The position numbers were made by a program, and so were the translations under genes. From IMG/VR virus record IMGVR_UViG_3300020202_000040, positions 1-42,725 of that record: a stretch of DNA of 42,725 bases. One strand, written 5' to 3'. Shown piece after piece: positions 7,144 through 42,725 of the stretch. Position 1 is the stretch's first letter. Each line of letters starts with the position of its first letter. The DNA comes from a virus. Under the pieces are notes generated by a model. The model saw only the letters and a list, made by a program, of their open reading frames with translations, was not told the origin of the DNA and ran no database searches.

Positions 7144-7418
7144 GCGTCGTTCTGGACATCCATGAGAACGAAGAACTGCGGCACGCCAAGGCGTTCCTTG
7201 ACGGCGTGGAACTCTCGCACTGCTTCCGCCTGTGCCCAGCCGAGGGGTGGGCTGATGTGTACGAGACAGAGAACGGCGGGCGGCGCATCGCACTTACCCC
7301 CGACGGGTTGGCCCCTGCTACCAAGCGGGTGCATGGGCGGGTGTACGCAATCGACACCCGCACGGGCGAGCCGTGGGACACCGACAAAGCCATGTACTCC
7401 GAAGGGGGCTGTGACTGA
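7140..7418 (+). CDS. Hypothetical protein (92 aa)
   Basis: ATG 7140 inside track ORF 6972-7418; ATGA overlap with the terL stop. Confidence 0.55.
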   Translation: MSVVLDIHENEELRHAKAFLDGVELSHCFRLCPAEGWADVYETENGGRRIALTPDGLAPATKRVHGRVYAIDTRTGEPWDTDKAMYSEGGCD

Positions 7419-9970
7419 TGCCGAAGGCCACCACCAAACGCCCCACCCGCGCCCCCAAGTCCCCCACCCCCGGCCGCGAGGTCTACGAGCCCTACGCGAT
7501 GGGCACGGTCATGGTGGGGGAGGGCATGTCCCGCCAGTTCTCGTTCAACCCCACCGACAACGCCCTGGTGCGGCGGTGCGTGCAGCAGACGATGGCCTGG
7601 GCCGTGGCGTTCAACGCGATGGCGTGCGCCCAACAGAAGCTCCGCCTGTTCCGCACCACCAAGGCCAAGGGCAAGGCCCTGTGGGCGGGCAAGCGGGTGA
7701 CTAACCGCAAGATGCTCCGCCACCTGCGCGGGGAGGGTCTGTACGACGCGGGCACCAAGGCTCTTGAGCTGAGCAATGAGGGGGACGTTGAGGAAGTGCT
7801 TGACCACCCAGCGCTAACCCTGTTCCGCCAGCCCGACCCCTTCCAAACCAGCATCGACTTCATGGAGACGCACTTCTGGGGCAAGGAAGCGGTGGGACGC
7901 TCGTACACCTGCAAGGCCGAGCGGGGCAGCGACGGGACGCCGGTGAGCCTGTACAACCTGCTGCCCGCCTACATGACCGTGCAGCCAGACGAGCGCACGT
8001 TCATCCGTGGGTACTGGTACGGGCGCAACACGGTGGCGCAGAGGATGTACACGCCCGCCGATGTGATCTACCACCGGCACATGACGAACAAGCTGAACCC
8101 CCTGGAAGCCTACTCGTGGCCGTCCACGCTCCAGATGGAGTCAGACTGCGAGATGGCGGCGGTGCAGAGCGAGGTGGCGAAGTGGAACAACGGCGGGCAG
8201 CCGGGCATGATCGTGAGCATTGACGGCACACCCCCGTCTCCCACGGCGCGGGCACAGATCGAGTCTGACTGGGCGCGGCAGGTCAAGGGGGTGCAGAAAC
8301 ATGGCGGCGCATTCTTCATATTCGGCAAGGCCAGCGTTACACAGGGCACCGACTCGAAAGAGATGCAGTACGTCGAGGGCCTGACCAAGATCGAGAAGCG
8401 CATCTACCGCGCGGCCGGCATCCCCGACTCCATCGTGGAGATGAGCAAGTCGAACCTGGCGAACGCTTGGCGGGCGGATCCGCAGTACTGCTCGCAGGTG
8501 ATCCTCCCCCGGATCAATAAGTCGGCGGAGGAGTTCAACCTGTGGCTCCTCTACAGCGACTTCGATCTGGACCCGGGCGAGTACTTCTTCGCGTTCGACA
8601 ACCCGGTGAAGGAGGACGAGGTAGCGGCGGTGGACCGGGCGGTGAAGCTGGTTACGGCGGGGATCATCCGCCGAGAGGTGATCGCGGCGGAGCTTGGGTA
8701 TTTGCCGGAGGATGTGGGGACGGACCCCAACGCCGTGCCGGAGCCTGTGGAGGTGGAGGATGGGGCCGAACAGACCGATCCCGAGGGCGGCGACACGACG
8801 GTGGATGGCACAGTCGCCGCGCCGACCGGGCGGGACGTACAGGCGGAGGCCCTCAATGGCGCACAGGTCACAGCACTGGCGGAGTTGGCTTCGCAGGTCG
8901 CGCTGGGTCAACTGCCCGAGCGTTCGGCCCGCGCGATTGCACGGGCGGCGTTCCCCCTCGTGTCCGACGAACTGCTCACCGAAATCTTCGGGGGGCTGGA
9001 AGCCTTCGAGCCAGAGCCCGATCCCACAGCCGCACCGCCCGATAACACTAAACCCCCGAACGGTAATGGACCTAGCAACGTGGCAGTGGGCGGCGACGGT
9101 GCGAAAGCCTTGGGAACTGAACTGACGCGCGGTAGCGTGAGCGCCCATGAGCGAGGCGGATCAACGGCGTCTGGTGCAGATCATGGCTCAACTAGAGCGC
9201 ATGACGAAGCCCGCTTCCCCTCCACCTCCCCCGCCCGCAAACGGCTTGCGCTTGAACCCCGGGAAGGGTGCGAGTGTGGACATCCCGCCGGACATATTCA
9301 CGGCAAAGCCACCGAGCCCGAAACGTCGCTTGGACAACTGAAGGCGAAGCTTGAGGCGTGGCTGAAGGCGACGTACCCGGAGGCGTTGCAGCCGGACGGG
9401 TCGGTGGTGCTGACGCCCGCGCAGGAGCAGGACCTACAGGCCATCCTCGGCCCTGTCATCCGTGAGTACATGGAGGAGGGCGCCAGCGCCACCGCGGGCA
9501 AGCTGGGCGGGGAGTGGGGCGGGATCGCCACCAACCCCCGGGCCTTGGAGTGGGCCGAGCAGCACGCGGCGGAGGCGGTCAGGGACATCGCGGACACGAC
9601 GCGGGCGGAGCTGAACGCGGCGGTCACTTCGGGCTTGCAGGAGTCGCGGACGCTGAACGAGATTCAGGCCGACATCCGCGAGCGGGTGCCGGAGATTGCG
9701 AGTGCGCGGGCGGAGGTCATCGCCCGCACCGAAACCGCCACGGCCTACAACCGGGGCGGGGTGATCGCGGCGAAAGAGAACGGGTACACGCACAAGCAGA
9801 TTGACCTCGCGGGGGGGTCGTGCCCCACCTGTGAGGCGGTGGTGGCGGCGCACCCCGAAGGCGTGCCGATTGACGGGAGTTTCATGGTGGAGGGGACGCC
9901 GATGTACAGCAGCCCGCTGCACCCGAACTGCCGGTGTGCCACAACGTTTGAGGACAGGAGCGAAGGATGA
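7418..9970 (+). CDS. Portal protein fused to a MuF/SPP1-gp7-type head morphogenesis domain
   Basis: 850-aa single ORF. The N-terminal ~530 aa is portal-like, including LNGAQVTALAELASQVALGQLPERSARAIARAAF. A Pro/Gly-rich linker follows. The C-terminus has ARTETATAYNRGG...CPTCEA...PLHPNCRC, typical of MuF-like minor head proteins. Confidence 0.8.
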   Translation: MPKATTKRPTRAPKSPTPGREVYEPYAMGTVMVGEGMSRQFSFNPTDNALVRRCVQQTMAWAVAFNAMACAQQKLRLFRTTKAKGKALWAGKRVTNRKMLRHLRGEGLYDAGTKALELSNEGDVEEVLDHPALTLFRQPDPFQTSIDFMETHFWGKEAVGRSYTCKAERGSDGTPVSLYNLLPAYMTVQPDERTFIRGYWYGRNTVAQRMYTPADVIYHRHMTNKLNPLEAYSWPSTLQMESDCEMAAVQSEVAKWNNGGQPGMIVSIDGTPPSPTARAQIESDWARQVKGVQKHGGAFFIFGKASVTQGTDSKEMQYVEGLTKIEKRIYRAAGIPDSIVEMSKSNLANAWRADPQYCSQVILPRINKSAEEFNLWLLYSDFDLDPGEYFFAFDNPVKEDEVAAVDRAVKLVTAGIIRREVIAAELGYLPEDVGTDPNAVPEPVEVEDGAEQTDPEGGDTTVDGTVAAPTGRDVQAEALNGAQVTALAELASQVALGQLPERSARAIARAAFPLVSDELLTEIFGGLEAFEPEPDPTAAPPDNTKPPNGNGPSNVAVGGDGAKALGTELTRGSVSAHERGGSTASGADHGSTRAHDEARFPSTSPARKRLALEPREGCECGHPAGHIHGKATEPETSLGQLKAKLEAWLKATYPEALQPDGSVVLTPAQEQDLQAILGPVIREYMEEGASATAGKLGGEWGGIATNPRALEWAEQHAAEAVRDIADTTRAELNAAVTSGLQESRTLNEIQADIRERVPEIASARAEVIARTETATAYNRGGVIAAKENGYTHKQIDLAGGSCPTCEAVVAAHPEGVPIDGSFMVEGTPMYSSPLHPNCRCATTFEDRSEG

Positions 9971-12067: not shown

Positions 12068-13501
12068 ATGAACCGCAAGCAGCTTTTGGCGTTCCTCGCC
12101 AAGCAGGGCTACAAGGGCGCGTCAGTTCTCGCAGACATCAAGGCTTGGATCGCCGAGCAGAACGCCACCATCTCCGACCCGTCCGGGGAGGAGGTTGACG
12201 TTGACGCGGCTTGGGCGACCAAGGCCGCTCTGACCGTCGATGACGCCAGCACCAAGGCGCACGAGGCCGACGAAGACCCCGATTCCGTCACCGTCAGCAC
12301 CGCCGAGCTGAACCGCCTGAAGGCTGCGGCCCGGGTGGAGAACCAGAAGGTCCGGGGCACCAACCCGCCCCGCAACCCAGCCGACGCGCCGGCCATCCAC
12401 ACCGGAAACGACCGCTTCGCCCGCAAGTCCTACCAGGGCAAGATCGCCCGGGGCGAGGCCAAGTTCGGCGACGTTGACCAGGCCGAGTACGTTGGCGCGA
12501 CCCTGCGGCTCGCGTCGATGGCCCCCTTCGGCACGAAGTCGTACCGCCAGCGCGAGAGCGACGAGGCCATCGTCGCCAACGTCGTTGGCAAGACGGGCTC
12601 CAGCACCAACAACAGCATCGGCGGGTTCCTCATCCCCGACGACGTGAGCATGTCTATTTCGTGGGCGACCGAGGCCAGCGGCATTGCCCGCCGCCTGTTC
12701 AACGTGCAGCGGATGACCCGCGATACGTGGAGCGGCAACCGCAAGACGGCCATGATCTCCATGACCCACCGGGCGCAGTCGGGCTCGATGACGGCCACCG
12801 ACGACACGCTGGACCGGATCAACCTCATCGCCAAGGAGGTCTACGCCCTGGTGCGCCTCCCCACCTCACTGCTGGAGGATTCGGCGGTCAGCATCGCGGA
12901 GGAGTACAGCAAGAGCTTCGCGGAGGCTCAGGGTCGCCGCGAGGATCAGGACGCCTTCATCGGCGACGGCTCGGCCACCTACGGCGGGCACGTTGGGCTC
13001 GCCAACGCCTTGCGTTCTGGCGCGTACATCGCTCAGGCGACCTCGAACACCTGGGCGGCGCAGGTTGAGGCCGATCACCTGAAGCTCATGGGCTCGGTCG
13101 AGAACGTTGACACCAAGCGGCTCGCGTTCCTGTGCAGCCGTCAGTACTACGTACAGGTCATGCTCCGCCTCGCGCTGGGCAAGTCGGGCAACAACGCCCG
13201 TGACACACGCGAGGGGCTAGGGATGCTCGGCGCGGACGCCGTGTACCTCGGGCACCCCGTGTTCTTCTCGCCCGACCTTCCGATCATCACGGCGACCACG
13301 GCCAAGTCGGTGTACTTCGGGGACTTCCAGGGCGGGGCCACGCTGGGCGACCGGCGCGACCTCACCGTGTCCACCTCCGAGCACGCCTACTTCACCACCG
13401 ACGAGTACGCGATCAAGGCCACGGCCCGCATCGCGGTGAACGTCCACAGCGACGGGCGCTCCGGCACCTTCGGCAACATCGTCTGCCTCAAGAACGGCTG
13501 A
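12068..13501 (+). CDS. Major capsid protein, HK97 fold, with N-terminal delta/scaffold-like domain
   Basis: 477 aa; helical acidic N-terminus, then GGFLIPDDVS...LIAKEVYALVRLPTSLLEDS...EDQDAFIGDGS...YFTTDEYAIKATARIAV, typical of the Phage_capsid family. Confidence 0.9.
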   Translation: MNRKQLLAFLAKQGYKGASVLADIKAWIAEQNATISDPSGEEVDVDAAWATKAALTVDDASTKAHEADEDPDSVTVSTAELNRLKAAARVENQKVRGTNPPRNPADAPAIHTGNDRFARKSYQGKIARGEAKFGDVDQAEYVGATLRLASMAPFGTKSYRQRESDEAIVANVVGKTGSSTNNSIGGFLIPDDVSMSISWATEASGIARRLFNVQRMTRDTWSGNRKTAMISMTHRAQSGSMTATDDTLDRINLIAKEVYALVRLPTSLLEDSAVSIAEEYSKSFAEAQGRREDQDAFIGDGSATYGGHVGLANALRSGAYIAQATSNTWAAQVEADHLKLMGSVENVDTKRLAFLCSRQYYVQVMLRLALGKSGNNARDTREGLGMLGADAVYLGHPVFFSPDLPIITATTAKSVYFGDFQGGATLGDRRDLTVSTSEHAYFTTDEYAIKATARIAVNVHSDGRSGTFGNIVCLKNG

Positions 13502-25875: not shown

Positions 25876-26130
25876 TCAGGGAGTACCAATCGGGCCGAAT
25901 GCCTCTGGGTCGTGATCTGGGTTGAAGAACACCACCTCTCCACCACTGGCAACGTGCTTGAATCGGTGGCCGTCCCGAACATACCGATCCGCCACCATGT
26001 TCTCGAACGCATCGGCCAGTCGGTTGCGGTGCCCGGCTGTTGGACTGGCCATTGAACACTTCCGGCCGATGGTGCCGTTCACGTTGAGCGTTGTGAGCAT
26101 CCGCCAAGTCTTGCAGCCCAGGGGCTCCAT
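25876..26130 (-). CDS. Hypothetical protein (84 aa), last gene of the leftward operon
   Basis: ATG 26130 preceded by GGAGGAG (26136-26142); internal start of track ORF 25876-26238. Confidence 0.6.
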   Translation of the reverse strand: MEPLGCKTWRMLTTLNVNGTIGRKCSMASPTAGHRNRLADAFENMVADRYVRDGHRFKHVASGGEVVFFNPDHDPEAFGPIGTP

Positions 26131-26132
26131 CC

Positions 26133-26360
26133 CTACTCCTCCCTCGTGGGTGGGGTGTGTATCACTGTGCCGCCCACCACATCGACAGCGACCGGCTGGG
26201 TGTCGAACACCCGCGCAAGCACCTCCTGATAGCCACAATCACACCGCATAGGAGAGGTGGTATGGATGCCGTGGAAGAAACCGGCGGCGTACATTGTGGC
26301 GCAGCCGTGTTTGTGGCCCGTGTACGGGAGCAGCGCGTTTACCAGTCCGGCGTCGTCCAT
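26133..26360 (-). CDS. Hypothetical Cys/His-containing protein (75 aa)
   Basis: ATG 26360 shares one base with the upstream stop; HKHGC...CDCG. Confidence 0.55.
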   Translation of the reverse strand: MDDAGLVNALLPYTGHKHGCATMYAAGFFHGIHTTSPMRCDCGYQEVLARVFDTQPVAVDVVGGTVIHTPPTREE

Positions 26361-26740
26361 CACTCCCCCCTCACGGCCCGCACGGCGGCTTGCAGGGCGT
26401 GGTCGAGGGTGGGGCCATAGAACTCCGCCCACCCCTCGCGACGCGACACCTCTGACTCGCCTTGGATTGGTTCGTCATCCAGCACACGCACCCGCACCGT
26501 ATTCGAGGGAAACAGTCGTAATGCTCGGTTCTTCAACAACTCGGTAATCGCCGCAGACCGGCAGAGGGCGAGGGCGGCGGTTTCGTCAAGGTCCAAGCCG
26601 CCCGGACACCAGCACCACTGCGACCTCACGAGCGGGTTCGTGCCTAGGCACTCTCCGTCAGCGTTCACAGGGCGTGTCTTGGGCACCTTGGCCCACAGAG
26701 CTTCATACCCCGCCAGCGCGTCGGTGCTACTCGCGGTCAT
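26360..26740 (-). CDS. Hypothetical protein (126 aa)
   Basis: 4-nt start/stop overlap with the upstream gene. Confidence 0.6.
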   Translation of the reverse strand: MTASSTDALAGYEALWAKVPKTRPVNADGECLGTNPLVRSQWCWCPGGLDLDETAALALCRSAAITELLKNRALRLFPSNTVRVRVLDDEPIQGESEVSRREGWAEFYGPTLDHALQAAVRAVRGE

Positions 26741-27039
26741 CGGGGGCTCCGGGTGGTGGGGGTGAGTGGCTCAACTTCAATCGCGGCCTGTGCGTCGTAG
26801 GCCAATGACAGCACGCGGTCTACCCACGGTGAAACGTGGCTGAGGCCATGGCCCATCGGGCCACGATCTATCTTCGCCAGAGAACGACACACTCCCGTCA
26901 TCGCGTCGGCCTGACGCGCCCGCATCAGCAGGTGGGCCACTGTGTCTGACTCGGTGGGCATAGTAGAGGCCAACCACCGGAGGTAGGTGCCCAGTGTCAT
27001 GTCTTCTAGGCGCTTGGCTGTTCGCTTCGCCATCCTCAC
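26737..27039 (-). CDS. Hypothetical protein (100 aa)
   Basis: GTG 27039 overlaps the HTH gene stop (GTGA); an ATG 6 nt downstream is an alternative start. Confidence 0.6.
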   Translation of the reverse strand: MRMAKRTAKRLEDMTLGTYLRWLASTMPTESDTVAHLLMRARQADAMTGVCRSLAKIDRGPMGHGLSHVSPWVDRVLSLAYDAQAAIEVEPLTPTTRSPR

Positions 27040-27263
27040 TCCTTCCGCTGGGGGCGGGTTAGTCGGGCTTTCTTTGTGGGCCTACCCACCAACGTCGCCG
27101 CCATCGCCCAGTATTGATTCCGCTTGGGCTCGCCCTTGCCCTCGCGCCAGCGATACACCGTCGAGCGGTTGACGCCTGCCGCCCTTGCCAGTTCGGGCGT
27201 ACTCACGCCCGCGTTTGATGCGGCGGCAAACAGTTCGCGTATTTCCTTGGACGCTGGCGGCAT
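27036..27263 (-). CDS. Small HTH DNA-binding protein (repressor/Cro/excisionase-class)
   Basis: VSTPELARAAGVNRSTVYRWREGK helix-turn-helix; first gene of the leftward operon, next to the int region. Confidence 0.7.
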   Translation of the reverse strand: MPPASKEIRELFAAASNAGVSTPELARAAGVNRSTVYRWREGKGEPKRNQYWAMAATLVGRPTKKARLTRPQRKE

Positions 27264-27281
27264 TGTCGCAGTTTAGCGACA
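27264..27281. promoter_or_regulatory. Perfect palindrome TGTCGC-AGTTTA-GCGACA (operator candidate)
   Basis: Abuts the HTH start codon and covers the predicted -10. Confidence 0.5.
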
Positions 27282-27298
27282 CTGGCACCCGCTGTCAA
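27270..27298 (-). promoter_or_regulatory. Candidate leftward promoter TTGACA-17-TAAACT, giving a leaderless HTH mRNA
   Basis: The minus strand reads TTGACAgcgggtgccagtgtcgcTAAACTgcgacaATG; no Shine-Dalgarno before the ATG. Confidence 0.45.
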
Positions 27299-27381
27299 AC
27301 CCTGCTACCATCCCCCCACGCGGCCCACCTCACGTTGACTGGCCCGTTCCCTGCTCCGCGCCCTGGGGCGCGGGGTGGGTT

Positions 27382-27494
27382 TGGTGAGTAGTTCAGCTTG
27401 GTCGAACACCGACCGGCTCTGGCTACGTGCGGGCAACCGCAAACGAACCAGAGAAGCGGACGGAGGCACGCGGGTTCAAATCCCGCCTCACCAT
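27382..27494 (+). ncRNA. tRNA-shaped RNA with a 60-nt rod in place of the anticodon arm (atypical tRNA / tRNA mimic)
   Basis: Acceptor TGGTGAG/CTCACCA, D arm GTTC-AGCTTGGTC-GAAC, T arm GCGGG-TTCAAAT-CCCGC. The central part is CCGACCG/CGGACGG + CTCTGG/CCAGAG + CTACG[TGCGG-GCAA-CCGCA]AACGAA. Confidence 0.6.
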
Positions 27495-27496
27495 TT

Positions 27497-27790
27497 ATGC
27501 AACGACGCACCTTCATCGGCGGGCTGCTGGGGCTCATTGGGCTGGCGGGCAGGGGCAAGGTGGAGACGCCGCCGGAGAGGGTGGTGGTGCCCACGCCGAA
27601 GCCCAAATCGCCCGTGCTCTCGTTCGAGAAGGGCGGGACGATTGAGTGGCGGAGCACATCGCCGCCGATCACGACGCTCAACCTGACCGGCGGGCGGATC
27701 GTCACCGTTGATTGCAGCTACGGCGGCACACCGGCAACCATCGAAGCCTACGGAATCGACGGGTACGGACGCCGCCACCGTATCACCTAG
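27497..27790 (+). CDS. Small Tat-signal secreted protein (97 aa)
   Basis: MQRRTFIGGLLGLIGLAGRG twin-arginine signal; ATG lies 3 nt after the tRNA-like 3' end; internal start of track ORF 27398-27790. Confidence 0.65.
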   Translation: MQRRTFIGGLLGLIGLAGRGKVETPPERVVVPTPKPKSPVLSFEKGGTIEWRSTSPPITTLNLTGGRIVTVDCSYGGTPATIEAYGIDGYGRRHRIT

Positions 27791-27798
27791 CCTCCCCC

Positions 27799-28158
27799 AT
27801 GGACCTCCCCCAACCTGCCCTCGACCTCCTGGCGATTGGCCGCAGGTACTTCGACGTGGACATCCGTTGGGTGCCCCCCGGCAGCCCCACCAGCTACGGC
27901 CGCGCCTTCGGCTTCTGGTCCGTGGAGGTCGGGCCCAAGGGCTGGCGGCAGTGGCACACCGTCGTGGACCCGCGGCCGTTCGCGCAGCGGTTCGTGAGCA
28001 TGGGGCAGGTGCCGCCCTGCACGGTGGAGTGGACAGACCCGACCGTGGCGATCCGCGGGGCGCTGACGCAGGCGCGGAAGAACTGGCCGGATTGTGTGAC
28101 GCCGCGAGAAGACGGCCCCCGCGACAACCCCGGCACATTGCCCGCCTCGGGTGGGTAA
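27799..28158 (+). CDS. Hypothetical protein (119 aa)
   Basis: ATG 27799 inside track ORF 27712-28158. Confidence 0.55.
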   Translation: MDLPQPALDLLAIGRRYFDVDIRWVPPGSPTSYGRAFGFWSVEVGPKGWRQWHTVVDPRPFAQRFVSMGQVPPCTVEWTDPTVAIRGALTQARKNWPDCVTPREDGPRDNPGTLPASGG

Positions 28159-28276
28159 CGCCTACCGATTCCCAGCCATTCTGTGAAGAAATGCTCACGC
28201 TCTATCAACCTAGAGCGCCCAGTCTCCCTAGACAACCGCCCGGTGTGTGCGCCCGGTGCCTTGGGGGAGGTTCTGG

Positions 28277-29869
28277 ATGAGCACGACAGACGGGTGGAAG
28301 CTGTGGGACGCCGAGGGTGTGGAGCGCGGGATCGGCGTGATGCCGAAGGCGGTGCCGAAGAACGTGGACGGGGCGGAGCCGATGCCCTATCACGCCACGC
28401 GGCACGCCGACCGTCCCATAAGCGAGCAACTCGCCCTCGCGTGCATCGAAACGGTGCAGAAAGCGTTGCACCTTTTGGAGGGGCAAGTAGGTTTGGCCCG
28501 CATGACAGCGGCACAGGCGAGCCCGGCACCACAGCCCGGCCCGCTCAGAATCTCTACCGACAGCCCGACCGTCAGCGTGCTGCTGGTTGCGTGGACCGGC
28601 GCGTTGAAGCTCAAGGGCGTCACTGACGGCCACGTTAAAGACTCCATCGACTGTGTGACCGACGCCGCCGCGTCTCAGTGCTGGACCTTCCCCAGCCAGA
28701 TGACGCCCGCCACGATCCGCACTTACTTGGAGGCCCGCAAGCTCAAGGGCAACGGCCCGCGGTATCTGAACCACCAACGCGCGTACATCGGCACGTTCTG
28801 GGACTTCTGCAAGGGCGAAGGCGCCGTGTCCGGGGACAACCCCATTGACGCCGTGCCCCGCGCCCGCGTGAAGCGGCGGCAGGCGTTCCACGTCCCTACC
28901 GAGGATGAGGTGGTGCGTCTCATCGTCGGCGCGACACAGGACTGGCGGAAGAAAGACCGCTGGCTTGTGCGGCTGGTGCAGGCGTGCAGCCATTACCGAA
29001 TCGGCACGCTCCGCGGCATGAAGCCCGAGCACGCGCACGAGGCGGAGTTCCCACCGTACTTCGAAGTTCCTCCGGAGCTGGTCAAGAACGGCGAGCCGAC
29101 GCGCGTGTGGATGACGGCGGAAGTGGCTCGCTGGATCACCGAGCACAAGCGGATCAATGCGGCCAAGATCAAAGCGAGGGGGCTGCTGTTTCTATCGGTG
29201 GGCAAGGGCAAAGAGTTCGACCGGGATCTGGAAGCCGCGAATCTCCCGAAGAAAGCGCACCCAGGAGCACCCGCGTTTGTCCCGCACAGCCTGCGGCACT
29301 TCGCCAGCAACCGGCTCAAGTGGGCCGAGGTGTTCACGGACGAGGAGCGGCAGGCGCAGAACGGGCACAAGACGTTGGAGATGACCACGAGGGTCTACAC
29401 CGATCCCTCTCACATTCAGTTAGGCCAGAAAATCTACCGGCTGAAAGACCTTTTACCGGACGGGTTTAGGCCAAGATGGGGGCAGCGAACAGAAAAAACG
29501 GGGCAAAGTGTGCTTGCACCCCCGGGGGAAACCGATAAACTGGACGACGCCAAGCCGAACAAGGGATTGAATCGTGTTCACCCCCCAGACTCACTACAAG
29601 AACCCGCCTGTGACCCGAGTGGTCCGGCTTGGCGGCATGACGGCAATCCCGTGCGGGCGGGTTCTTGCCGTGAGTCGAGCGAAGGGCGGCAGTTAGACGA
29701 GCCTGATACTGACCGGGGCAAGCGGTTCGAATCCGCCTACCCCGACTTAGATCAAAATGACCCCGATATAAACGGGGTCTACCTCGAGCTGATCGAGGTC
29801 CAGGCCCGCCTGATTGCCGCCCTTCTCCGGAAGGGACGCGGCAATGGACCGTCAAAGGCAAGCGGCTAG
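28277..29869 (+). CDS. int: Tyrosine integrase with ~155-aa post-catalytic extension
   Basis: GGGGAGG at 28264-28270; RIGTLRG (Arg), HSLRHF (H-x-x-R), GHKTLEMTTRVY (His...Tyr; Tyr codon at 29396-29398). Confidence 0.88.
   Translation: MSTTDGWKLWDAEGVERGIGVMPKAVPKNVDGAEPMPYHATRHADRPISEQLALACIETVQKALHLLEGQVGLARMTAAQASPAPQPGPLRISTDSPTVSVLLVAWTGALKLKGVTDGHVKDSIDCVTDAAASQCWTFPSQMTPATIRTYLEARKLKGNGPRYLNHQRAYIGTFWDFCKGEGAVSGDNPIDAVPRARVKRRQAFHVPTEDEVVRLIVGATQDWRKKDRWLVRLVQACSHYRIGTLRGMKPEHAHEAEFPPYFEVPPELVKNGEPTRVWMTAEVARWITEHKRINAAKIKARGLLFLSVGKGKEFDRDLEAANLPKKAHPGAPAFVPHSLRHFASNRLKWAEVFTDEERQAQNGHKTLEMTTRVYTDPSHIQLGQKIYRLKDLLPDGFRPRWGQRTEKTGQSVLAPPGETDKLDDAKPNKGLNRVHPPDSLQEPACDPSGPAWRHDGNPVRAGSCRESSEGRQLDEPDTDRGKRFESAYPDLDQNDPDINGVYLELIEVQARLIAALLRKGRGNGPSKASG
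29714..29745 (+). other. tRNA 3'-end / minihelix mimic: candidate attP core
   Basis: CGGGGCA-AGCGG-TTCGAAT-CCGCC-TACCCCG-A; a T-loop plus 3' acceptor strand of C1-G72/A73 (Pro-like) type, inside the int 3' extension. Confidence 0.4.
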
Positions 29870-30272
29870 CACCGGCTCAGAATCCCCCACAACCAAGCAC
29901 ACGCCGGGGCCGTGGACGGCGACTCTAGCTCGCACCCTGATCCACGTTCACAACGCCGAACTTGGCGAGCCGGTTGTCGCCATATCTGTTTCGCCCCCTC
30001 GCATTCACGAAAGGGACTTGCGGGACAAGGCGGTTGCGACGGCGCACGCCAACGCCCGCCTGATCTCTGCCGCGCCGGACCTGTTCGCGTACGCACGCTG
30101 CCAGGAGGCGTGGTCCTCTCGCACCGATGGTGGTGACTACCCGCACGGTGCCGTTCTCTCGCTCTTCCGTGAGTACGGATACGACGAACCCGTCGAGGGA
30201 TCGGTGTTCCTCGAAGACCTCCGCCGCGCCGCCATCGCCAAAGCCACCAAGGCGACAGGCGGTGCCGAGTGA
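29844..30272 (+). CDS. Ead/Ea22-like protein (paralog A)
   Basis: HTPGPW ... ANARLISAAPDLFAYA motifs. Confidence 0.55.
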   Translation: MDRQRQAASTGSESPTTKHTPGPWTATLARTLIHVHNAELGEPVVAISVSPPRIHERDLRDKAVATAHANARLISAAPDLFAYARCQEAWSSRTDGGDYPHGAVLSLFREYGYDEPVEGSVFLEDLRRAAIAKATKATGGAE

Positions 30273-32403: not shown

Positions 32404-32655
32404 ATGCTCGTACTCACAGTAGAGAAAGACGAATCAGTCCGCATTGGTGACAACCTGTACGTCCGCCGCCTTCGCGACGGGCGCTTGGGGTTCACTGCCC
32501 CGACTGGCGTGGTGATCCTGCGGGAGACGAACGACGACCGCCAGCACCCGCGTGGGACGTTCCCGAACCGCCCTGTCCCACCATCAGTCCAGCAGCAGCG
32601 TTCCGACGCCCTCGCCAAGACCGCCGGGGACATCGGGCGGGAGATTGGGCTTTGA
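32404..32655 (+). CDS. csrA: CsrA-like RNA-binding post-transcriptional regulator
   Basis: MLVLTVEKDESVRIGDNLYV...GFTAPTGVVILRE parallels CsrA [20 protein letters not shown]...IGVNAPKEVSVHREE; internal ATG of track ORF 32110-32655. Confidence 0.6.
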   Translation: MLVLTVEKDESVRIGDNLYVRRLRDGRLGFTAPTGVVILRETNDDRQHPRGTFPNRPVPPSVQQQRSDALAKTAGDIGREIGL

Positions 32656-42455: not shown

Positions 42456-42725
42456 ATGAGCAAGTCACCAACGGCCAAAGCGAAGTACGCACAGCGGCTC
42501 GCCAGCCAGAAGGCTCACAAGGAAGCCAAGAGGGTTCAGCAGTTCGAGCGCGACAAGTGCACCGGCTGCGGGGCCAAACATGGCGAGCGTCACCGGACCG
42601 GATGTACATGGGCTGAGGAGTTCCGGCGGCTCAACGAGGTCCGCCTTGGGATACCGGCGGCGATGTTCGACGGAGGCACAGGCGTCACAGCGACCCTCGC
42701 CGCATTGCTGACAGGACGGAGGCAC
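42456..42725 (+). CDS. Junction-spanning small basic CxxC protein (5' part; continues at position 128 of the circle and stops at 136)
   Basis: ATG 42456 lies 1 nt after the upstream stop; MSKSPTAKAKYAQRLASQKAHKEAKRVQQFERDKCTGCGAKHGERHRTGC...; open to the window end. Confidence 0.6.
   Translation, partial: MSKSPTAKAKYAQRLASQKAHKEAKRVQQFERDKCTGCGAKHGERHRTGCTWAEEFRRLNEVRLGIPAAMFDGGTGVTATLAALLTGRRH
42599..42725. repeat. Terminal direct repeat, copy 2
   Basis: Identical to 1-127. Confidence 0.95.

Follow-up and report, generated by a model that had tools for sequence, protein, structure and literature searches.

A tRNA-shaped gene of a temperate phage whose anticodon arm is replaced by a 55-nt rod

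Background

Phages are known to make small stable RNAs that are matured by tRNA-processing enzymes, among them C4 of P1 and P7 and CI of P4, which belong to immunity regions, and “species 1” and “species 2” of T4; these RNAs do not have a complete tRNA core. We know of no natural phage counterpart of the engineered “tRNA scaffold”, a laboratory design in which, as Ponchon and Dardel are said to have described in 2007, a cargo RNA is inserted in place of the anticodon arm. Here we analyze a tRNA-shaped gene in a viral genome, the IMG/VR virus record IMGVR_UViG_3300020202_000040 (source contig ENA ERZ27257319 k141_966547; 42,725 nucleotides, all of which were analyzed and which we refer to as the window). 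In this element, a 55-nt structured rod stands where the anticodon arm is expected. Its topology is identical to that of the engineered scaffold, with an intact acceptor/D/T core, which would be expected to promote processing and stability, and a foreign hairpin coaxial with the anticodon stem. No phage tRNA-like RNA in which a rod substitutes for the anticodon arm came up in literature searches. Our tentative reading is that the element specifies a non-decoding small RNA built on a tRNA scaffold.

Compared with a canonical phage tRNA (RF00005), the element has the acceptor stem, U8 and A9, a D stem with G18G19, G45, G46 and C48, and a T arm with TTCAAAT, but differs in the 55-nt rod, in the absence of an encoded CCA and in having C21. 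Intron-containing tRNA genes, whether of the archaeal and eukaryal bulge-helix-bulge (BHB) type or with bacterial group I introns, likewise carry extra anticodon-arm sequence in an otherwise normal tRNA gene. At 49-55 nt, however, the insert of the element falls far short of a group I intron, and no single removal restores a canonical arm. The element also has something in common with the attP sites of tRNA-targeting integrases, since it looks like a tRNA and lies near a tyrosine integrase gene, but it has both tRNA halves, and no host tRNA with the same 3′ end was found. A further comparison is offered by YrlA (RF02553), a non-decoding tRNA mimic that combines D, T and acceptor-like modules with a long stem at the place of the anticodon stem and is circularly permuted: its termini lie in the long stem, which binds Ro, and a loop caps its acceptor stem (bioRxiv 10.1101/312249). 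As a candidate non-decoding mimic with a long stem at the same place the element resembles YrlA, but the topology is the opposite one: both termini of the element belong to the acceptor stem, and GCAA caps the rod.

Results

A tRNA core without an anticodon arm

The two core halves of the element (Table 1) form acceptor, D and T arms in which all 16 base pairs are perfect: seven of seven in the acceptor stem (TGGTGAG at 27382-88 with CTCACCA at 27487-93), four of four in the D stem (GTTC-AGCTTGGTC-GAAC at 27391-27407) and five of five in the T stem (GCGGG-TTCAAAT-CCCGC at 27470-27486). When the sequence is read in standard tRNA numbering, the conserved core nucleotides are also in place (U8, A14, G15-C48, G18 and G19, G10-C25, C13-G22-G46, T54-A58 and G53-C61), with G45, G46 and C48 supplied by the variable loop AGGCAC. 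The only unusual core position is 21, which is C rather than the usual A. The element therefore has the three arms and the conserved core nucleotides of a tRNA, but the 61 nt between A26 and the T stem do not contain a 5-bp stem with a 7-nt loop carrying U33 and a purine at position 37. An initial annotation of the window had already concluded that no normal 17-nt anticodon arm can be drawn here; this conclusion, the tRNA-shaped gene and the helices and coordinates it listed (acceptor, D, T and rod helices, the upstream hairpin and the ATG of the next gene) are all borne out by the sequence. It had placed the letters TA after the acceptor stem, where the sequence reads TTTATG.

The rod is made of three helices. 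Helix A pairs CCGACCG (27409-15) with CGGACGG (27457-63) over 7 bp with one A.A mismatch; helix B is a perfect 6-bp duplex of CTCTGG (27417-22) and CCAGAG (27448-53); and helix C, TGCGG-GCAA-CCGCA at 27428-41, has 5 bp (27428-32 with 27437-41) closed by the GCAA loop at 27433-36. A 1x3 internal loop separates A from B, and a 5x6 internal loop (CUACG/AACGAA) separates B from C. On its own, the rod has a minimum free energy (MFE) of -25.3 kcal/mol (z = -3.77), with none of 200 shuffles as stable, and the whole element folds with z = -3.47. Because the rod replaces the anticodon arm, the element cannot decode. Two known kinds of structure were considered for the rod and set aside: by inspection only, the 5x6 internal loop does not fit the consensus of a K-turn or loop-E motif, and a dispersed mobile hairpin was rejected, as there is no second copy within the window.

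Table 1 Coordinates of the element and of neighboring features in the window
Feature	Position	Strand	Description
tRNA-shaped gene	27382..27494	+	113 nt including discriminator U 27494; no CCA encoded
5′ core half	27382..27408	+	Acceptor 5′ strand 27382-88 (U1), U8 A9, D arm, A26
Rod	27409..27463	+	55 nt; helices A, B and C with GCAA cap
3′ core half	27464..27494	+	Variable loop AGGCAC, T arm, acceptor 3′ strand, discriminator U 27494
GC-rich hairpin	27354..27375	+	9 bp, loop CTGG; ends 6 nt 5′ of the tRNA-like start
97-codon open reading frame (ORF)	27497..27790	+	Start codon 3 nt past the discriminator; predicted gene of the source contig
75-aa helix-turn-helix (HTH) regulator and promoter	27036..27298	-	Gene 27263-27036; PHROG HTH/repressor matches
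Tyrosine integrase ORF	28277..29869	+	PHROG and Pfam integrase matches; element 0.8 kb away
Likely attP core	29722..29745	+	tRNA-Pro-like 3′ fragment: T arm, acceptor 3′ strand, discriminator A

A probable second member in a related phage

Relatives were sought among 12 contigs with integrase homologues, which were screened with a simple cloverleaf finder, and a comparable element was found in just one of them, L005, a phage with an integrase of the same family (39% identical). The L005 element (12844-12950, 107 nt) reaches 41.6 bits on RF00005; its insertion, of 44 nt, falls at the model position where the window element has its own, and its middle region is 55 nt long. The two elements have in common U1, the D loop AGCUUGGU and 16 of 17 T-arm positions. 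Acceptor pairs 2, 4, 5 and 6 and D pair 11-24 differ between them on both sides and are still paired. A GC hairpin (~12812-12842) lies ~2 nt upstream of the L005 element. From this comparison, the L005 element is probably a homologue of the window element and a second member of its kind.

The inserts can be compared at their 3′ base, where CAGAGAAGCGGACGG in the window and CAGCGAAACGGACGG in L005 are identical at 13 of 15 positions (p about 0.05; 100 of 2000 shuffles reach the score). By inspection, each of these segments pairs with a 5′ complement, and the A.A mismatch of the window corresponds to U-A in L005. The L005 insert also contains a tandem UAGCAGC duplication. The L005 element lies after ssb and before the replication genes, and the next gene is 168 nt downstream with its own Shine-Dalgarno sequence (SD).

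Other tRNA genes were seen in the early region of phages of the same integrase family. L004 (7099-7174) and L132 (7034-7109) each carry a tRNA-Met(CAT) that starts with U1-A72, L134 (5140-5212) carries a tRNA-Gln(TTG), and the tRNA of L135 (8648-8723) has an aberrant 18-nt anticodon arm and is reported by ARAGORN as “???”.

Detection by tRNA and RNA-family searches

The initial annotation had proposed standard tRNA tools as a check, and their answer is mixed. In a local scan of 261 nt, the element matches RF00005, the Rfam tRNA model, over its full length (1-71) at 39.2 bits against a gathering cut-off of 29 (E = 3.7e-7). The alignment places 49 nt against 11 anticodon-arm model positions, and the cut-off is passed only via that local insertion. 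Default ARAGORN, on the other hand, does not call the element in the window, and whole-window Rfam scans return nothing at the gathering threshold nor at E <= 1, where the element is missed because of the speed filters. ARAGORN reports it in intron mode only, as a tRNA-Gln(ctg) with a 24-nt intron. Genes of this build thus escape default ARAGORN and whole-contig Rfam scans.

Sequence searches in larger collections were unproductive. Exact or degenerate scans of IMG/VR DNA gave no match to the 3′ end of the element, to its D arm or to the rod (an exact 39-mer), nor to the D-loop/T-arm pattern that the element has in common with L005. Against 50,697 phage records, the only matches of the element were generic T arms.

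Known non-decoding RNAs were considered as well. For YrlA, the window gives no match at E <= 10 and L005 scores 18.5 bits against a cut-off of 69; no TROVE/Rsr (Ro) domain was found among the scanned window proteins, a set that did not include every ORF. C4 has no Rfam match in the window. A tmRNA was rejected, since ARAGORN finds none in the window, pair 3-70 is G-C instead of G3.U70 and the element has just 113 nt. An antisense regulator of the C4/CI type was likewise rejected, the longest antisense match being 13 nt, in an exonuclease gene, and within the range of shuffles.

tRNA-shaped genes with inserts of 30-90 nt recur in IMG/VR contigs (L037, L091, L009, L068, L077 and L092), some of them inside phage tRNA arrays. 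In L037 (8653-8764, minus strand), an AT-rich rod of ~21 bp takes the place of the anticodon arm, and in L091 (9049-9154, minus strand), a gene with a 33-nt insert lies within an array of 25 tRNAs; minus-strand coordinates of this type are given on the reverse-complemented locus. L068 has two such genes with mutually related structured inserts of ~60 nt, and L077 likewise has two genes with related inserts. This quick screen suggests that tRNA-shaped genes with long inserts are apparently not rare in viral contigs.

No single excision restores a canonical anticodon arm

The initial annotation had compared the element to a tRNA-Arg with an 18-nt insert bounded by an ACG/ACG duplication and had listed a new kind of interrupted tRNA among its possible readings. 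The E. coli tRNA-Arg(ACG) arm that it quoted, CTCGG-CTACGAA-CCGAG, is correct (100% identical in 5426/5426 E. coli genomes), and excision of 18 nt does produce the loop of that tRNA, CUACGAA, but on a 13-bp anticodon arm. In an exhaustive enumeration of single deletions between A26 and the T stem, 0 solutions have a 5-bp stem (at least 3/5 pairs), a 7-nt loop, U33 and a purine at 37, for the window element and L005 alike. When the loop rule is dropped, the best solution for the window element has 4/5 pairs and G33. This enumeration supports neither claim, and the CUACG/ACGAA motif is in addition absent from L005. An IMG/VR pattern scan found no CTACG...AACGAA motif next to a T arm, and we estimate the chance of a loop that reads like Y-U-NNN...R-N at ~1/16.

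The tRNA-Gln(ctg) intron model of ARAGORN was rejected as a forced fit: it breaks the perfect CTCTGG/CCAGAG helix, its 4-bp stem contains a mismatch, its D arm is aberrant and its variable region runs to 20 nt. Signs of splicing were looked for in three ways: Rfam scans of the window contain no group I or other ribozyme or intron family; by inspection, a BHB motif is absent, the internal loops being 1x3 and 5x6 and not 3-nt bulges 4 bp apart; and no ligase or endonuclease gene for splicing is seen among the annotated window genes. The element is not a canonical interrupted tRNA.

The likely attachment site lies at the end of the integrase ORF

An unusual attP had been another of the suggested readings. 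The homology of the integrase ORF (to P0018) stops at residue ~404, corresponding to window position ~29489, and its G+C content at third codon positions (GC3) drops from 0.83 to 0.63 after 29474. The last ~125 codons (29474-29869) are probably non-coding att-region sequence. Within them lies the tRNA-Pro-like fragment GCGGTTCGAATCCGCCTACCCCGA, whose 24 nt occur exactly, between unrelated flanks, in the L129 prophage (integrase 40% identical). In that NCBI contig, which is from a metagenome-assembled genome (MAG), the 24-mer stands just after the integrase, at the junction of prophage and host; a large unannotated gene comes next, ahead of host-type genes (dihydroorotase, GAPDH). Closely similar tRNA-Pro-type 3′ fragments are found at the integrase 3′ ends of L130, L133 and L137, in either orientation. 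We conclude from these matches that 29722-29745 is likely the attP core of this phage.

The 3′ end of the element behaves differently from this core. Its 21 nt of T arm and acceptor have no tRNA match in 185,579 GTDB species genomes or in 241 million JGI metagenome records; two genome and three metagenome matches are all by chance and lie inside non-tRNA, coding-looking sequence. With the att core elsewhere and no host tRNA carrying the element's 3′ end, the attP reading of the element is refuted. The integrase homologues are all at most 42% identical, and locus searches that started from the integrase returned 0 and 1 loci in IMG/VR. The corrected attP assignment would supply a tRNA-Pro 3′-end att core for an uncharacterised integrase family, which is useful even if the element proves to be a decayed tRNA. 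Inverted repeats flank the core at 29722-29745; they lie at 29588-29608/29656-29676 and 29681-29705/29801-29825.

Flanking genes and genome

The element is located in a 233-nt divergent intergenic region, with the HTH gene reading leftward and the 97-codon ORF (ORF 27497) rightward. The hairpin just upstream of it has no terminator-type T run, and no terminator was detected there; it could be part of a precursor leader or an operator at the DNA level. ORF 27497 has no SD in a genome where most genes carry one of the GGAGG type. Its GC3 of 0.86 and Tat-like (twin-arginine translocation) N-terminus MQRRTFIGGLLGLIGLAG make it look coding, and it has no homologue, its sole database match being itself. 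A 119-codon ORF and then the integrase follow on its 3′ side.

On the other side, the HTH gene has a sigma-70-like promoter, TTGACA-17-TAAACT at 27298-27270, that matches the consensus at 10 of 12 positions. As the -10 hexamer stops 6 nt short of the start codon, the mRNA of this gene, which has no SD, is probably leaderless. Lambda cI transcribed from PRM is a leaderless repressor mRNA with which it may be compared.

The window is the complete circular (or terminally redundant) genome of a temperate tailed phage of ~42.6 kb with ~65% G+C. Its ends are identical over 127 nt (1-127 = 42599-42725), a repeat that represents assembly overlap. The genome encodes a terminase, a fusion of a portal with a Mu-F-like domain, and a major capsid protein, and the replication block encodes a PD-(D/E)XK nuclease, a DnaC/IstB-like protein, an HNH protein and a beta clamp. 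The portal fusion is a single 850-aa ORF (7418-9970) with the portal domain at residues ~64-477 and a C-terminal Mu-F-like head-morphogenesis domain at ~705-846. We judge the host to be bacterial on the basis of the beta clamp, the DnaC-like protein, the Tat signal and the SD features. A blastn search with window 26000-30000 gave no match among the 50,697 phage records, and a 508-aa tail-region protein has partial, distant matches only, in Eisenbacteria and Planctomycetota MAGs.

Two short motifs of the element recur elsewhere. The 11-mer GACGGAGGCAC occurs three times on the plus strand, at 71-81, at 117-127 and, in the rod/variable region of the element, at 27459-27469. The copies at 71 and 117 lie 46 nt apart just upstream of ORF 133-651, and the second of them supplies the SD of that ORF. 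The match extends to 14 nt at 116-129 and has no equivalent in L005; judged from the sequence, the recurrence could be chance or a shared protein-binding motif. GGA motifs of the CGGACGGA type are present in both the element and its L005 relative, all within paired regions. A small gene at 32404-32655 has weak CsrA-like matches (a weak Pfam match, PHROG 5527 “transcriptional regulator” with E = 1.8e-4 and PHROG 9500 “CsrA-like regulator” with E = 2.5e-3). A role for the element as a CsrA sponge was considered and set aside: the phage has the weak CsrA-like gene, but the GGA motifs of the element are paired.

Discussion

Of the readings proposed in the initial annotation, the non-decoding tRNA mimic survives, while the attP reading is refuted and the interrupted tRNA finds no support. 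The best-supported reading, to which we give somewhat less than an even chance, is that 27382-27494 encodes a non-decoding, tRNA-scaffolded small RNA. Such an RNA would be transcribed at the head of a lysogeny-side block that encodes a 97-aa secreted-type protein, a 119-aa protein and the integrase. Its tRNA core would let RNase P mature the 5′ end of the transcript and would direct 3′ trimming of the tRNA type and CCA addition, and the product would be a stable, L-shaped small RNA with the rod as its long arm, a natural counterpart of the engineered tRNA scaffold. Acting in trans as a non-decoding tRNA mimic, it may sequester, as a decoy or sponge, an enzyme or defence factor that recognizes the tRNA acceptor or elbow; alternatively, it may be a carrier and display the rod to a partner. 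Cleavage at the 3′ end would, in this phage, also give the SD-less ORF 27497 a leader of 2 nt. The release of a leaderless mRNA, which the initial annotation had put forward, is plausible here, given the missing SD and the coding look of the ORF, but it is not conserved in L005, and we therefore treat it as a secondary role.

Several observations weigh against a non-decoding, tRNA-scaffolded RNA. In energy terms, a non-cloverleaf structure is favored by 7.5 kcal/mol (unconstrained MFE of the element -49.2 versus -41.7 kcal/mol with the cloverleaf imposed), and the unconstrained fold breaks the D arm and instead pairs GGUCG with CGACC, GCUU with AAGC and GUUC with GGAC. The promoter scan found no sigma-70-like plus-strand promoter upstream of the element. 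No significant antisense target was found in the phage, and no Ro/Rsr, RNA ligase, CCA enzyme or anticodon-nuclease inhibitor is seen among the annotated genes. The comparison with L005 has weaknesses of its own. The similarity of the two inserts is suggestive of homology but does not prove it. Because the L005 insert is not stably folded (z = -0.77), the pair does not establish the rod as a conserved structure, and the link to a directly following ORF is absent in L005. Moreover, with just two members known and insert homology suggestive, the five compensatory changes could simply mean that these are two different tRNA genes.

The main rival, a serious one that we consider unlikely on balance, is that an insertion or expansion in the anticodon arm of a phage tRNA left a defunct gene, a non-functional relic that has not yet decayed. 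Related phages of the integrase family do have ordinary tRNA genes, for Met (CAT; L004 and L132) and Gln (TTG; L134), and the slightly damaged tRNA of L135 suggests a spectrum of decay. The UAGCAGC duplication and the lack of a stable fold in the L005 insert would also suit a relic, as would the absence of a detected promoter and of close relatives that could demonstrate conservation. A relic is harder to reconcile with 16 perfect core pairs out of 16 and mostly intact tertiary positions, or with an insert that is not random but extends the anticodon stem coaxially into a stable rod. If L005 is a true homologue, the core pairing has moreover been kept through five double changes, which is unexpected of a pseudogene in a compact phage genome. 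Improbable, in our view, is a purely cis-acting processing signal, in which the tRNA-like fold serves for RNase P and RNase Z cuts that define the essentially leaderless mRNA of ORF 27497 and the excised RNA has no role. That the ATG follows the discriminator by 3 nt and lacks an SD, when most genes have one of the GGAGG type, speaks for such a signal; the ORF has a coding signature, and the adjoining HTH gene is also apparently leaderless, so the host may translate leaderless mRNAs. In L005, however, 168 non-coding nt separate the element from the next gene, which has its own SD. An acceptor/T minihelix is a sufficient substrate for RNase P and RNase Z, and a processing signal would need neither a D arm nor a tertiary core nor a 55-nt rod. 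RNase Z, furthermore, leaves a 5′-monophosphate and here a 2-nt leader, for which efficient leaderless translation is uncertain.

We give still less credence to an interrupted decoding tRNA, in which the insert, or part of it, would be an intron removed by a bacterial or phage activity to yield Arg-ACG or Gln-CUG. The intron-mode call of tRNA-Gln(ctg) and the CUACGAA loop left by an 18-nt removal are the basis for this idea. U1-A72 is typical of bacterial tRNA-Gln and suits that assignment, and genes with inserts of 30-90 nt recur in IMG/VR contigs, as in the tRNA array of L091. Yet no single deletion restores a canonical arm in either element, the ARAGORN model sacrifices a perfect 6-bp helix and requires a redrawn D arm, and no BHB, ribozyme, ligase or endonuclease that could serve such splicing was seen by inspection, in the Rfam scans or among the annotated genes; from tRNA geometry, the 13-bp arm that remains after the 18-nt excision should be too long for the ribosome. 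The least credible of the alternatives, and a very unlikely one, is a site acting at the DNA level: the inverted repeats in the rod and in the hairpin before it would serve as operators or for recombination (as attP or a secondary att), and the tRNA look would be the relic of a captured host tRNA. The element lies in the divergent region, with a repressor-like HTH gene on one side and the integrase block on the other, a position that would fit such a site, as would the recurrence of the 11-mer at 71 and 117. A DNA site, however, offers no reason for a perfect acceptor/D/T cloverleaf; the att core of the integrase family lies elsewhere, at the integrase 3′ end; no host tRNA with the element's 3′ end exists in the genome and metagenome collections searched; and the L005 element stands in a different context, after ssb.

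Conclusions

The tRNA-scaffolded reading can be extended from one element to a family, with a correspondingly lower probability that makes the extension rather doubtful: temperate phages of this integrase lineage may encode conserved natural “tRNA-scaffold” RNAs, whose core would hijack host tRNA maturation and protect the RNA and whose rod would be cargo, acting in trans, for example, as decoys of acceptor- or elbow-directed tRNA toxins and defence nucleases or as sponges of an RNA-binding regulator. If the RNA of the window is made and is stable, it would be a natural case of a design that RNA engineers reached independently, with the tRNA body as a processing and stability scaffold. If this reading is true, phage tRNA genes would gain a non-decoding class; at present they are discussed for the most part as aids to codon usage or as substitutes for tRNAs that host defences have cleaved.

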